Shown here: piece after piece, positions 4,368 through 11,096 of the stretch
Layout: each line of letters begins with the position of its first letter
Position numbering within the stretch: position 1 is the stretch's first letter
Origin: Lentimicrobiaceae bacterium
Lineage (GTDB): Bacteria; Bacteroidota; Bacteroidia; Bacteroidales; JAGNHN01
Length of the DNA stretch: 64,000 nt
NCBI GenBank assembly: GCA_018001695.1
Contig: JAGNHN010000006.1
Span: forward strand, 12,358 to 76,357
Direction: 5' to 3'
Position numbers and translations under genes: made by a program
The notes under the pieces: model-generated
What the model was told of the DNA's origin: nothing
What the model saw: the letters and a program-made list of their open reading frames with translations, nothing else
Database searches by the model: none

Positions 4368-5308
4368 GTTCGATTCGCAAGCGATTGGTTGCCATCCGCG
4401 ACATCATCGCAACAGCCAATTTCAGTGAGCTCCTCTCCGAAGTGAACGGACTCCTTGAGGAAAGCCGGCATGATAGCCGCTTTCTTCCCCTAAAAGAAGC
4501 GGCAGAAATGAGAGAGTACAACCTGGCTGCGCAGCTTACAGATGGCTTGCTCTCAGCCTTCCAGCCTCCCGTTCTGAACAAAGATGTCCTGATTACAGGG
4601 TTGAAAACCAGCCTTAACCTCCTCGAAACCAAGTTGTCAGTCCTGAACCACCATAAACTGGAACTGCATCGTCATATCAATGAGTTCAGATTTTTGCACA
4701 ACAAATATCTGGGTAGTCTTATGGCAGAGATCTTTGAGCTTCGTAGAGATATTCTCTTTATTGAATACCAGGAAAATGCTTCGAATAAGGAAGCATTTGA
4801 TGAAGCGGAAAAAGACCTGGGGCAGTTTAATGAGGAACGAAGCCGCGTGAGCGAAGCCAGTATCCAGGTGCTCAGCAGGAGAGACCGTGCTGAGCTTACA
4901 TCGCTTTACCGTCAGGCGAGTAAGCGCTGTCATCCTGACCTGATTGCAGAAGAACTTCGTGAAGAAGCTACCTTGTTGTTTATCAGGCTAAACGAAGCCT
5001 ATTTGCAGAGTGACCTTGAAGGCCTCAGAGCTGTAATACGCATGTTGGATGAGGGCACAATAAGGCTGGCCAATCGCATGGAAACCTTGCATGAAGAAGA
5101 TAAATTACTGGCCAGGATCACACACCTCCAAACCGAGATCAGTCATTTAGAAAAGGAGATAGCAGGCATAAAGGAATCACGTGTATATCAGACTAGTTTG
5201 CATGAATCAGATCTTCATGCCTATTTCACCAGGCTGGAGGAAGCGTTTATTCGTGAAAGAGAAGTGTTAAGAACGACATATGAATCTAGAAAAGGGGCTG
5301 ATAGTTAG
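4364..5308 (+). CDS. Coiled-coil protein with internal DnaJ (J) domain
   Basis: LYRQASKRCHPD...FIRLNEAY J-domain core (HPD at 4931-4939) flanked by heptad-rich helices. ATGA overlap with the upstream gene. Confidence 0.85.
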   Translation: MSSIRKRLVAIRDIIATANFSELLSEVNGLLEESRHDSRFLPLKEAAEMREYNLAAQLTDGLLSAFQPPVLNKDVLITGLKTSLNLLETKLSVLNHHKLELHRHINEFRFLHNKYLGSLMAEIFELRRDILFIEYQENASNKEAFDEAEKDLGQFNEERSRVSEASIQVLSRRDRAELTSLYRQASKRCHPDLIAEELREEATLLFIRLNEAYLQSDLEGLRAVIRMLDEGTIRLANRMETLHEEDKLLARITHLQTEISHLEKEIAGIKESRVYQTSLHESDLHAYFTRLEEAFIREREVLRTTYESRKGADS

Positions 5309-7635: not shown

Positions 7636-8223
7636 TTAAACCAGAAACCATAGATTGCTGATCTCAAGCATTATCCAAGCAAAGATGGTAAATCTGAGGA
7701 ACCGAAAAGCTGCGAATATCATAAATTGACCTTTAGGGTAGCCTATGGCACCCATGAGCATGCAAACGGCTGAATACGGTATTGGCGTCAGAGCAGCCAC
7801 GATCAGAAGGAAGAACCCATAACGTTTTAGGTTATGGGTTTGCTTTTTCAGCACTTTTGCATGTAACCAATGGTAGAAGCGGGTATGACTCAGCGCTCTT
7901 CCGATAAAAAAACCGCTTACGCCGGCGCCATAAGACAGTGCACCCAGGATGCCCATCATCACAGGGTATGAAATATTTCCCGAAGATCCTGCTGCCCACA
8001 ACATGAATATTTCTGGTGGGATGATGCCAAAGACCACTTCAGAAAGCACAAACACAAGCAAGACGAGGCCGGTTCTATCTGCAAGCCGGTCTATCAGGAT
8101 CTGGTAATCGATATTTAGGCTGATCTGAATGACAGCCATCAGTCCGATAATACCGGCAAACCAAACAAATCCCTTAAGGATATTCAGCAGGAGAAAACGA
8201 CGTTTTTCTATTTCTGGCACCAT
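7636..8223 (-). CDS. DedA/VTT (SNARE-associated) family membrane protein
   Basis: Hydrophobic protein with FGIIPPEIFM, GFFIGR, ALTPIPYS and RFLRF motifs. Start placed at MVPEIEKRR. Confidence 0.8.
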   Translation of the reverse strand: MVPEIEKRRFLLLNILKGFVWFAGIIGLMAVIQISLNIDYQILIDRLADRTGLVLLVFVLSEVVFGIIPPEIFMLWAAGSSGNISYPVMMGILGALSYGAGVSGFFIGRALSHTRFYHWLHAKVLKKQTHNLKRYGFFLLIVAALTPIPYSAVCMLMGAIGYPKGQFMIFAAFRFLRFTIFAWIMLEISNLWFLV

Positions 8224-8388
8224 ATTGGAGTAATGCGGTATAAAGGTACACAATCCCGGTATGCGATAATTTAGCCGGAATGTTCTAGTTATATTTATTT
8301 ATATTACAGAAAATGAACGCGTTGAATGTTATTAACAATTGTTGATAACCCATGTTTGTATGATGTGCAGATCTGAACCCAGAAAAAC

Positions 8389-8420
8389 TTGCATTCGGGG
8401 TGTCGTTCGTATTAACTTTG
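8389..8420 (+). promoter_or_regulatory. Bacteroidota housekeeping-sigma promoter (-33 TTG / -7 TAACTTTG) driving the intergenic RNA candidate
   Basis: TTG at 8389-8391, 21-nt spacer, TAACTTTG at 8413-8420. No credible ORF follows. Confidence 0.7.
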
Positions 8421-8423
8421 GTA

Positions 8424-8800
8424 GACCAAGTGAGCGAAAAAGGGTAAGTCGGGGTGCATGGAAGCTTGGGTTCTTTGGAACGCAGGACGAATGCACGGCG
8501 GGTCGGAAAGCCGAAAGGCCGGAAAACCCAACGACAAAGGGTCGTTAAAGCGTTGCCAGGCGCAACACGAGGCCCAGGTTCTTTGAAAGTGTGGCAGAAG
8601 GAGTTTCACCTGTTCTACGGAACAAGCCGTCCGGGCAAGCAATACTCTACGGAGCGCTGAACGGCATAGGCTGGTGGAGCAAAACCATGGCACAAACTAC
8701 ATCGAACAAAGCCACTTAACAGTAACTTGGCACCAACCCTGCGCTACGGCCAGGGCGAGTGAATGGGGAACTTTTCCGCAAGAAAGGTTCCCCATTGTGT
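8424..8800 (+). ncRNA. Putative large structured non-coding RNA, family unassigned
   Basis: Own promoter; 5' CCAAGT pairs with 3' ACTTGG; at least 9 local helices; three c(UACG)g loops plus GAAA and GCAA loops, all oriented for the + strand; terminal hairpin. Ends are estimated. Confidence 0.65.
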
Positions 8801-8803
8801 TTT
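8762..8803 (+). terminator. Strong hairpin ending the putative ncRNA (terminator-like)
   Basis: AATGGGGAAC (8762-8771) pairs with GTTCCCCATT (8787-8796), GCAA loop, followed by GTGTTTT. Confidence 0.65.
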
Positions 8804-8872
8804 AGGATCCACTTTCCTCTTCAGATATTCTTCAGGTAATCTTGAAATAGCTGCCCGACATGCGGTTTTAAG

Positions 8873-8880
8873 TACTTTTG
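8873..8880 (+). promoter_or_regulatory. -7 promoter box for relA/spoT
   Basis: TACTTTTG matches TAnnTTTG, about 30 nt upstream of ATG 8910. Confidence 0.6.
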
Positions 8881-8909
8881 CGTTTTATTATGATGGGACC
8901 CTATAAGAG

Positions 8910-11096
8910 ATGAGGCAGGAGGAAACCACTAATGATGTGCAGTTGAAGCAGAAAGCATTCAAGGATTTCCTGGCACGGCAGGCGAAGGAGGTGCAGGAAG
9001 ACCCTCATGTCAATGCTTGCTGGGCCTTTCTGATTCCCTTACCTCAGGAGTTGGATAAGAACGACCCGGAACCTGCCTGGCAGCATGCCTTATCGGTGGC
9101 ACAAATTGTCTCGGAGCAGGTTGGACTGGGTCCTCATTCTCTCGCAGCCGCATTGCTGCATGAATGGGTCGTGCAGGGCGAGATTCGCATCGATGATCTG
9201 AATCAGTGGCTTCATCCTGTTGTGGTCCGATTGCTGACCGGATTAAGGAAGGTCGCAGCGATCAGGACGGATCGGACAGCTTACCATTCAGAGAACTTCA
9301 TCAAACTCCTACTCACGGTGGGAGAGGATGTCAGGGTCACACTGATCCGACTGGCCGACCGGCTTCACCACTTGCGCAAGGCCGATCATCTTCCTCAAAA
9401 CCAACAACATCTGTTGGCAACCGAATGTGCACATCTATATGCACCTGTAGCGCATCGACTGGGACTTTATAAAATCAAGACTGAACTGGAAGAGCTCTCG
9501 ATGCGCATCCTTGAACCTGCGATCTTTGAAAGCCTCCAGAAGAAAGTTGCGCAGTCGGCCAGCAAACAGAAGGTGCTGATTGAGGACTTTACCCGGCCCA
9601 TAGAGAAAGCCCTGCTCAAGCATGGATTTGATTTCGAGATTAAATGGAGGACTAAATCCATTCCCTCTATCTGGCGAAAGATGAAAGTTCAGGGTGTTGA
9701 TTATGAGCAGGTTTACGATGTGTTTGCCATACGTGTCATTCTGAATCAGACCATTGAAAGTGAAAAAGCAGATGCCTGGAAAGTCTATTCCCTGATAACA
9801 GATATTTACCCGCCCAATCCTGAACGGTTGAGGGATTGGATTACTACGCCCAAAGCCAGTGGCTATGAATCCCTGCATACGACGGTATTTGGTCCAGGTA
9901 AGCGATGGTTTGAGGTTCAGATCAGATCGCGCAGAATGGATGATGTTGCAGAAAAAGGACATGCAGCACATTGGAGTTATAAAGATGCTGCTGCCGATGT
10001 GAGTTCAACAGCCTGGAACCAGATCCGTTCGCTTCTTGAACATCCGGTAGCGGAGGCTTTTGAAAAAGCCCACCAGGCTAAAACGGATTTATATAGTGAC
10101 AAGATATTCATTTTCACGCCAGATGGCGATCTGCGCAAACTGCCGGCCGGGTCTAGCGTGTTAGATTTTGCCTATGAGATCCATACCCGAATCGGAAACA
10201 CCTGCACCGGAGCCAAGGTTAACGGTAAGAATGTGACCCTCAAGCATAAGCTTGAGAATGGTGATAATGTTGCGATTCTCACTTCAAAAAACCAGCAGCC
10301 CAAGTCCGACTGGCTGGGTTATGTGGTCAGCACTAAAGCCAAATCCCGCATCAAAAGGGCCTTGAAGGAAGACCTGCTTAAGGAAGTTGCTTTGGGAAAG
10401 GAAATCGTGGAACGGAAATTCCGAAACTGGAAAATTCCTTTCTCCGATGAGGTGATCAACAAAGTGATCCGGCATTTCCATTTTCGTGACAGCCTGGAAT
10501 TCTATGCAGCCGTATCTGCAGGTAGATTTGACCTACTGGATGCCAAGGAGATACTGAAAGAGGAGAATGGCGTTGCCCATGAAAAGCAACCAATTTCACC
10601 CCCACAGTCCTTGCAACCTTCCAGATTATCCGAAACAGCAACGGTGGATATCCTGGAAATCGATGATTCTTTGGATCATGTGAACTACAACCTGGCACCT
10701 TGTTGTAATCCCATTTTTGGCGACGATGTTTTTGGATTTGTAACTGTTTCCAAAGGAATTAGCGTACATCGCCTTAATTGCCCCAATGCGGCAGATTTGC
10801 TTAATCGTTATCCATACCGTATCGTTGAAGTTAAGTGGAGGAAATCATCCGGTTTATCCAGTTATCAGGCCACCATTAAGGTTAGCGGAACAGATGAGCT
10901 GGGTATGGTAAACCAGATTTCCGAGGTGATTTCCCAGGACATGAAAGTCAATATGCGTTCACTCTCCTTTGAAACAAACGGTAGCCGCTTCGAAGGCTCC
11001 ATTACTCTCAATGTACATGACACGCAGCACCTCGAAGCCTTAATTCGTAAGATACAGAAGGTCAAAGGCGTACTGAGAGTAGTCCGGGGAGATTAA
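8910..11096 (+). CDS. relA: Long RelA/SpoT homolog, (p)ppGpp synthetase with degenerate hydrolase domain
   Basis: RTKSIPSIWRKM, DVFAIRVIL, PKASGYESLHTT, EVQIRS, AAHWSYK; TGS (FTPDG...LDFAYEIHT), APCCNP and C-terminal ACT domain. The HD motif reads LLHEWV. Confidence 0.92.
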   Translation: MRQEETTNDVQLKQKAFKDFLARQAKEVQEDPHVNACWAFLIPLPQELDKNDPEPAWQHALSVAQIVSEQVGLGPHSLAAALLHEWVVQGEIRIDDLNQWLHPVVVRLLTGLRKVAAIRTDRTAYHSENFIKLLLTVGEDVRVTLIRLADRLHHLRKADHLPQNQQHLLATECAHLYAPVAHRLGLYKIKTELEELSMRILEPAIFESLQKKVAQSASKQKVLIEDFTRPIEKALLKHGFDFEIKWRTKSIPSIWRKMKVQGVDYEQVYDVFAIRVILNQTIESEKADAWKVYSLITDIYPPNPERLRDWITTPKASGYESLHTTVFGPGKRWFEVQIRSRRMDDVAEKGHAAHWSYKDAAADVSSTAWNQIRSLLEHPVAEAFEKAHQAKTDLYSDKIFIFTPDGDLRKLPAGSSVLDFAYEIHTRIGNTCTGAKVNGKNVTLKHKLENGDNVAILTSKNQQPKSDWLGYVVSTKAKSRIKRALKEDLLKEVALGKEIVERKFRNWKIPFSDEVINKVIRHFHFRDSLEFYAAVSAGRFDLLDAKEILKEENGVAHEKQPISPPQSLQPSRLSETATVDILEIDDSLDHVNYNLAPCCNPIFGDDVFGFVTVSKGISVHRLNCPNAADLLNRYPYRIVEVKWRKSSGLSSYQATIKVSGTDELGMVNQISEVISQDMKVNMRSLSFETNGSRFEGSITLNVHDTQHLEALIRKIQKVKGVLRVVRGD

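Follow-up and report, generated by a model that had tools for sequence, protein, structure and literature searches.

What occupies the long gap upstream of a relA/spoT gene in a Lentimicrobiaceae bacterium, and does it belong to that gene? The question arises from a 64,000-nt stretch of DNA (GenBank assembly GCA_018001695.1, contig JAGNHN010000006.1, positions 12,358 to 76,357; hereafter the window), in which 656 bp (window positions 8254-8909) lie immediately upstream of relA/spoT (hereafter relA). Our reading is that positions 8425-8803 on the plus strand are probably the gene of a stand-alone structured non-coding RNA (ncRNA) that binds protein in trans and is controlled by an array of short sequence elements ahead of its promoter. 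The parts of this statement differ in strength: that the locus encodes a real, independent and structured RNA, the representative of a family outside Rfam, is held with high confidence; the protein-binding and DnaA-controlled mechanism is put forward tentatively.

An independent transcription unit

The RNA gene is approximately 379 nt long; its start is deduced from the promoter together with the 5' end that the family conserves, and its end is set by the U run of the terminator. The promoter is of the Bacteroidota type (assigned after PMC7366714): a -7 element of the form TAnnTTTG (TAACTTTG, 8413-8420, plus strand) is preceded by an A-tract and -33 element (AAAAACTTG, 8383-8391, plus strand). 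These are the signals named in a preliminary description of the locus (TTG at 8389-8391 and the -7 box), and both can be read directly from the DNA. Of 52 homologous loci, 51 have the -7 motif, and in nearly all loci a -33 element (AAAAACTTGAC or TTGCA) with its A-tract stands at the same distance. At the other end, the intrinsic terminator (8762-8803, plus strand) consists of a 15-bp stem-loop (8762-8796) followed by a U-rich tail; the terminal hairpin proposed earlier, with a T run behind it, is confirmed both by the sequence and by a terminator search, and all homologues have a terminator hairpin, with compensatory changes. Promoter and terminator bracket the predicted fold exactly.

The minimum free energy (MFE) of the plus strand of 8425-8803 is -143.2 kcal/mol (z = -4.45), and none of 100 shuffled sequences folds equally well; for the minus strand of the same region z is only -1.78.

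Comparison with catalogued RNAs returned nothing. A search with Rfam 15 (4227 models) gave no match at the gathering threshold in the 64-kb window or in 18 homologous loci – absence from Rfam had been anticipated – and at E-values up to 10 the gap holds only chance-level partial matches (mir-722, on the terminator hairpin, scores 21 bits against a cut-off of 81 bits). RNase P RNA (RF00010) and tmRNA (RF00023) are found on other contigs of the same genome (G000:C79:64565-64939, 247 bits, and G000:C96:13230-13599, 144 bits) and neither model matches at the RNA locus, in line with the earlier view that the RNA is neither of the two. Topic and literal-sequence searches of the literature found no description of it. 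The 6S model (RF00013) has no match in the window genome; it also misses the control, Bacteroides thetaiotaomicron, which has an experimentally validated 6S RNA (PMC7366714). It follows that 6S annotation in Bacteroidota cannot rely on RF00013.

Homologues and covariation

BLASTN of the RNA against 60 relatives recovered only the self match. Homology emerged only on aligning the syntenic gaps of two genomes of the same genus, in which the order thioredoxin, AhpC, VTT gene (minus strand), gap and relA is retained, the gaps are approximately 700 and 480 bp, and the RelA proteins are only ~61% identical. The congener RNAs are 491 nt long. They have promoter, closing helix, 3' hairpin and terminator in common with the window RNA, and each carries approximately four extra hairpins, all inside helix P3. 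In one congener an A-U pair of the closing helix is exchanged for G-C; over the three members of the genus, compensatory changes are found in 26 of 87 pairs.

Beyond the genus, interiors cannot be aligned between subfamilies, while the ends are nearly invariant. The family 5' end reads yACCArGU-GAGnGAUAAAA-GGyy; the 3' end reads rrYC-nn-AAUAACAGUA-rCyUGG-C, followed by a CAC..CCG..GC-UACG-GC..CGG..GUG hairpin and then the terminator. Pairs were counted on a gapless alignment (A7), made by joining, for each of 51 distinct members, the first 28 nt to the last 66 nt. In the named structure, which comprises P1, P2 and the 3' hairpin, paired cells amount to 80.7%, compared with 16-40% when partners are slid by one to three columns; cells changed on both sides number 132, against 52 in shuffles; and the covariation score of 0.346 (0.03-0.12 for slid partners) was reached by none of 500 shuffles.

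P1 closes the fold: CCAAGU (8426-8431, plus strand) pairs with ACUUGG (8725-8730), the complementarity pointed out in the preliminary description. It is paired in 96% of cells (n = 51), with exchanges among C-G, U-G and U-A, between A-U and G-C, and between G-C and A-U. Within the first four pairs of P2, three are held in 80-86% of sequences and the fourth in 55%, with many double changes (G-C, G-U and A-U; C-G and U-A). The stems of the 3' hairpin are paired in 77-86% of cells and likewise covary (C-G with U-A, G-C with A-U and others) with many double changes, whereas the GCUACGGC tip is invariant or almost so. Covariation among homologues had been named beforehand as one check to be made, and P1, P2 and the 3' hairpin all show it. 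Together with the stability of the fold and the family-wide conservation, it substantiates the claim of an independent structured ncRNA that has a promoter and a terminator of its own.

Conservation is highest in the internal loop that joins P1 to P2. On the 5' strand of this loop (J1/2) A10, G13 and A14 of the alignment are invariant, and G11 and U15-A18 nearly so; on its 3' strand (J2/1) A47, A48, C49, G51, U52 and A53 are invariant, and only the base before GUA varies. The geometry at P1 is constant, with AGUA directly before the helix on the 3' strand and GA directly after it on the 5' strand. This arrangement beside a helix resembles that of the established bulged-G (sarcin-ricin/loop E) motif. 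Three further pairs (G13-C49, U15-A47 and A16-U46) could extend the internal loop as an irregular stem.

On P2 sits a variable domain, a bundle of GNRA- and UNCG-capped hairpins that differs between lineages, and because of it length varies from 281 to 630 nt (median 326) among the fifty-odd full-length members. A subfamily of 285 nt (n = 8) has a consensus of P1, loop, P2 and three stems, with compensatory changes in 19 of 65 pairs; a 400-nt subfamily possesses the GGUUCUUUGAA element of the window RNA, there paired with AAAGAAC.

Distribution

An exact 3'-end pattern (AACAGT-N1-3-RCYTGGC-N11-GCTACGGC) scanned over 185,579 species genomes matched 32 stretches, 28 of them true and all in metagenome-assembled genomes (MAGs) of Bacteroidota: Bacteroidales, Lentimicrobiaceae and one Flavobacteriales. 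A looser pattern gave approximately 19 true matches in metagenomes, one of them almost identical to the window RNA. With a covariance model built from the 81-nt 3' element (for which E-values are rough) the RNA was found in 72 genomes out of a sample of 301 that spans the order Bacteroidales, representing 53 of 208 genera; strong matches (E < 1e-8) were obtained in 43 of the 301. Prevalence is therefore roughly 14-24% of sampled Bacteroidales species, the upper figure being soft because weak matches to the model are unreliable. Two true matches outside the order belong to one genus, from another order of the same class.

Most genomes have one copy; a few have two, on different contigs. A blastn search against 72,556 plasmids and 50,697 phages found no match to the RNA. 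The family is chromosomal and usually single-copy. At one locus (L038, equivalent to G223:C4) two RNA copies of 379 and 424 nt stand in tandem approximately 530 nt apart, each served by a separate 9-mer array, promoter and terminator; in the 3' hairpin of the second copy, UUCG replaces UACG at the tip.

A 9-mer array at a fixed distance from the promoter

Upstream of the promoter, at 8329-8348, lies a palindromic pair of DnaA-box-like 9-mers, TTATTAACA-AT-TGTTGATAA, centred approximately 86 nt before the RNA start. Two degenerate direct 9-mers follow on the plus strand (TGTTTGTAT, 8353-8361, and TGTGCAGAT, 8364-8372), spaced by approximately one helical turn. The arrangement recurs across the family: 37 of 52 loci have the palindrome (TTATTAACA-AT-TGTTAATAA, up to three mismatches allowed), its centre invariably at -85 to -87, and in other loci it is followed by direct 9-mers of the form TGTTGATnn and then by TGTGAATAA, TGTGGATAC or TGTGCATAC, again about a helical turn apart. 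DnaA-like 9-mers average 2.79 per upstream region and 0.13 in control stretches. Upstream of the two out-of-order homologues the TGTGGATAA boxes are perfect.

Within the window genome the palindrome occurs once only. A genome-wide regulon was considered and rejected: in 12 genomes the 14-mer core of the palindrome is no commoner than its reversed control, and five further exact copies of the core have no RNA or array alongside. Given that the palindrome is unique, its core is not enriched, other copies are unrelated and skew gives no sign of an origin here (see below), the array is best seen as a dedicated control site of the RNA gene. A second exact 14-mer core was encountered on the minus strand of locus L141 (G096:C42:1-1400), upstream of promoter-like TTTATACCTTTG and GTTCTTTGAG; no member of the RNA family is present at that site.

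Genomic neighbours

Among approximately 50 homologous loci, relA, the VTT gene and AhpC stand beside the RNA only in the two congeners. Elsewhere the neighbours include genes for a glycyl-tRNA synthetase, a POT transporter, a giant alpha-2-macroglobulin-like protein and, in one case, a PIN-PhoH protein. The position beside relA is thus incidental, since the neighbours of the RNA vary; with it falls the suggested link to the stringent response, which had been drawn from this location.

The only recurrent neighbour is the primase gene: in 22 of ~45 loci with enough flanking sequence, drawn from several RNA subfamilies, a convergent dnaG with all primase domains present lies immediately downstream. 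More generally, the downstream gene is frequently convergent with the RNA. At dnaG loci (for example L028, oriented positions 4606 and 4613) the RNA terminator hairpin ends no more than approximately 10 nt from the dnaG stop codon, and a single hairpin may serve as terminator for both genes.

Alternative explanations

If the RNA were a cis-acting, riboswitch-like leader or attenuator of relA, with the terminator at 8762-8796 gating read-through, relA should accompany it. The setting in the window invites this explanation: the RNA is on the same strand, ends in a terminator 106 nt upstream of relA, and keeps this arrangement in both congeners. Yet relA is downstream in only three related genomes and is not nearby in ~48 other loci, where convergent dnaG or unrelated genes follow, often on the opposite strand; there is no conserved alternative anti-terminator pairing, and relA may have a separate -7 box at 8873-8880, as the preliminary description pointed out in arguing, correctly on this evidence, against a leader. 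We regard a leader as very improbable. To the same degree improbable is a housekeeping RNA (RNase P, tmRNA, 6S or SRP) so diverged that Rfam models miss it. Size in the range of RNase P RNA and tmRNA, a single copy, a strong promoter and the general failure of the Rfam 6S model on Bacteroidota would all fit, but canonical RNase P RNA and tmRNA are encoded elsewhere in the genome, the RNA is restricted to 14-24% of the species of the order, and there is no 6S-type rod with a central bubble: 6S RNA is a rod of approximately 180-200 nt with a large central bubble, whereas the present RNA is multi-branched and 281-630 nt long, and B. thetaiotaomicron has a 6S RNA of its own (PMC7366714). That there is no RNA gene at all – the region being short protein-coding open reading frames (ORFs) or a long spacer that folds by chance – has a negligible probability. 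ORFs of 68-93 codons do overlap the region on both strands, but a Pfam search found no match for any of them, the lengths of homologues diverge by hundreds of bases, with whole hairpins inserted, the conserved positions cluster in paired and loop elements that show compensatory changes, and promoter and terminator frame the fold to the base.

Two other explanations accept the RNA and assign it differently. A recent preprint describes 'PhoH2-associated' multistem ncRNAs (COMPASS cluster 1,412,455), enriched in Bacteroidota, unmatched in Rfam and represented in Pedobacter mucosus by a 357-nt motif; phoH2 is adjacent in 148 of 326 loci (~45%) and within 5 kb in ~70% (bioRxiv 10.64898/2026.10.21.760802). 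The RNA could belong to that cluster, or to a branch of it, and work with the PIN-PhoH nuclease/helicase PhoH2: the cluster is multistem, of similar size and from the same phylum, ~30% of its loci lie away from phoH2, PhoH2 is encoded in 68 of 72 RNA-positive genomes, and in one Flavobacteriales MAG (L018) the RNA is divergent from a PIN_4+PhoH gene 240 bp away. Against this, phoH2 adjoins just one of ~50 family loci, the 5' and 3' motifs of the family are absent beside phoH2 at 12 sampled phoH2 loci and in the window genome, where no large RNA lies beside the gene (contig C39), and PhoH2 is present in 231 of 301 genomes of the order (77%), which makes the co-occurrence uninformative. The two groups were compared by gene context and by the description in the preprint, which prints no sequence; common membership is unlikely. 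A role in replication, with array and RNA marking an origin or a DnaA-titrating site and the RNA aiding opening or priming, or reporting DnaA status, is distinctly unlikely. It draws on the conserved and strictly positioned DnaA-box-like array, with its perfect boxes in the out-of-order homologues, and on the convergent dnaG. An origin would be marked by a switch in GC skew and by closely packed DnaA boxes together with an AT-rich unwinding element, mostly in the vicinity of dnaA or dnaN. But the GC skew does not switch at the locus, either in the window or over the contig, and in a closed carrier genome (20 sampled 20-kb segments; noisy data) the locus lies inside mostly negative skew with no change of sign. 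No AT-rich unwinding element was noted. In the window genome dnaG, dnaA (contig C7) and phoH2 are all on contigs other than that of the RNA. The array itself comprises only two to four boxes, none of which has a counterpart near dnaA, and it stands at a fixed distance from a normal promoter, the distance of an activator site.

Proposed function

We return to the reading of the RNA as a stand-alone, protein-binding RNA under the control of its array. The RNA would act in trans as the RNA part of a ribonucleoprotein (RNP): the P1-loop-P2 core, with its bulged-G-like module, would be the docking site of the protein, and the variable domain a structural scaffold. Transcription would be set by a factor that binds the DnaA-box-like 9-mer array fixed at -85, for which DnaA is the obvious candidate. 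In its most far-reaching form – a new, Bacteroidales-specific RNA class, wired to DnaA through its boxes, assembled into an RNP through a loop-E-like core, and constituting the RNA output of a DnaA/replication-status circuit that often lies beside the primase gene – the proposal is speculative, and we consider it rather unlikely to hold in full.

Several points weigh against parts of this reading. The 9-mers are candidate DnaA boxes by resemblance to TTATNCACA, from which the commonest box (TTATTAACA) is one position off; no cluster of such boxes was found elsewhere in the window genome, and no DnaA-like boxes were found near its dnaA. The P1-P2 loop is likewise a candidate bulged-G (sarcin-ricin/loop E)-like module by its sequence pattern. 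No neighbour is conserved family-wide among the loci compared. In a sample of 401 genomes of the phylum outside the order, five of seven covariance-model matches at E ~1e-5 were false. Finally, the predicted interior of the window RNA is a model built from only three divergent sequences.

The RNA has counterparts in kind. Like OLE, GOLLD, ROOL and raiA motif RNAs it is a long, stand-alone, multi-domain RNA rich in GNRA and UNCG tetraloops, whose core is conserved and whose periphery differs between lineages; it has no cis-regulatory role, and its context is uninformative as to function. It differs from them in having no match to an Rfam model, a Bacteroidales host, a smaller size (median 326 nt) and a dedicated 9-mer array upstream of its promoter; unlike GOLLD and ROOL, it has no prophage or tRNA-cluster association and no plasmid or phage matches. 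The likeness to GOLLD, ROOL and OLE suggested at the outset therefore stands for size and ornateness, and fails for membership, since none of their Rfam models matches. In Y RNAs, YrlA and certain other RNAs the 5' and 3' ends pair into a conserved stem that binds protein, with a variable domain at the apex. The present RNA bears a general resemblance to these: its termini pair, an invariant irregular stem lies beside them, and the distal domain varies freely. It is, however, far larger, has a different conserved loop sequence and no tRNA-like module, and no Ro (TROVE) gene is found among the neighbours examined. DnaA-regulated promoters include dnaA and nrdAB in Escherichia coli and sda and ywlC in Bacillus subtilis; as there, several TTATNCACA-like 9-mers lie in helical phase just upstream of the promoter. 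The difference is that the product here is a structured RNA, that TTATTAACA is the commonest box, and that DnaA binding is a candidate interaction only.

Bacteroidales dominate gut, sediment and digester communities, but the large RNAs known from them are few; this one is carried by roughly one in five or six species of the order. In the past, objects of this kind, single-copy RNAs of 280-630 nt supported by covariation, have proved to be ribozymes, RNP scaffolds or global regulators. The fixed array and the frequent dnaG neighbour are a lead towards coupling with replication or the cell cycle. For annotation the gain is twofold: the false lead of a 'relA riboswitch' or stringent-response RNA is removed, and a motif and a model are supplied with which the RNA gene can be found in MAGs.

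Architecture of the window RNA

The elements of the window RNA, all on the plus strand, are arranged from the outside inwards as follows. After the 5' strand of P1, the J1/2 strand of the internal loop (GAGCGAAAAA, 8432-8441; family consensus GAGnGAUAAAA) leads into the 5' strand of P2 (AAGGGU, 8440-8445; GGYY in the family), whose partner GCCACUU (8711-8717; AGYC in the family) pairs with one bulged A. The J2/1 strand AACAGUA (8718-8724; family consensus AAUAACAGUA) then returns to the 3' strand of P1, ACUUGG (8725-8730), and the conserved 3' hairpin, CAC..CCCUG..GC-UACG-GC..CAGGG..GUG (8731-8761), separates P1 from the terminator.

Inside P2, the MFE structure predicts three units. In variable domain 1 (8448-8535) helix P3 (GUCGGGGU with ACCC..CGAC) encloses two hairpins with internal loops and GAAA and UUUG tips. 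The P4 hairpin (8539-8575) is formed by GGGUC/GGCCC with inner GUUGC/GCAAC; the MFE fold of each congener likewise places a hairpin at the P4 position (CGGG/CCCG in G002, CGAAG/CUUCG in G001). The 3' domain (8577-8710) starts with GGUUCUUUGAA, paired to the CGAACAAAG region, and contains two c(UACG)g hairpins. Applied to the three sequences, or to the excised 3' domain, RNAalifold mis-paired the orphaned P1 strand, and these results were excluded from the model.

Much of the fold first sketched for this RNA survives. The three c(UACG)g loops are at 8616-19, 8648-51 and 8745-48, exactly as given, and the MFE structure contains the helices GTGCAT/ATGCAC, GTTC-TTTG-GAAC, GGGT/ACCC around GCC-GAAA-GGC, GTTGC/GCAAC, GCCGT/ACGGC and CCCTG/CAGGG. 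A proposed AACGAC/GTCGTT hairpin is not upheld. It has a competitor in a helix of longer range, which pairs GTCG 8448-51 with CGAC 8532-35 and is kept in both congeners (CUGCCGG/CCGGCAG and GUCGGU/GCCGAC). The suspected pseudoknot CTTGGG/CCCAGG is unsupported and has no counterpart in one congener.

Flanking genes and further observations

The neighbours of the RNA in the window are housekeeping genes. On the left, the 656-bp gap is bounded by a VTT-domain membrane gene (7636-8253, minus strand), and on the right by full-length relA/spoT (8910-11096, plus strand; HD_4, RelA_SpoT, TGS and ACT domains). Genomes of the order have two long RelA/SpoT homologues; the window copy is the homologue with 58-62% identity inside the genus, and the second is ~40% identical. 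In the congeners the longest relA ORFs are over-extended at the 5' end, and that of G001 overruns the 3' end of the RNA. The PhoH2 of the window genome (G000:C39:26511-28004; PIN and PhoH domains) has a lysine/alanine-rich N-terminal extension of approximately 50 residues that is absent in some orthologues.

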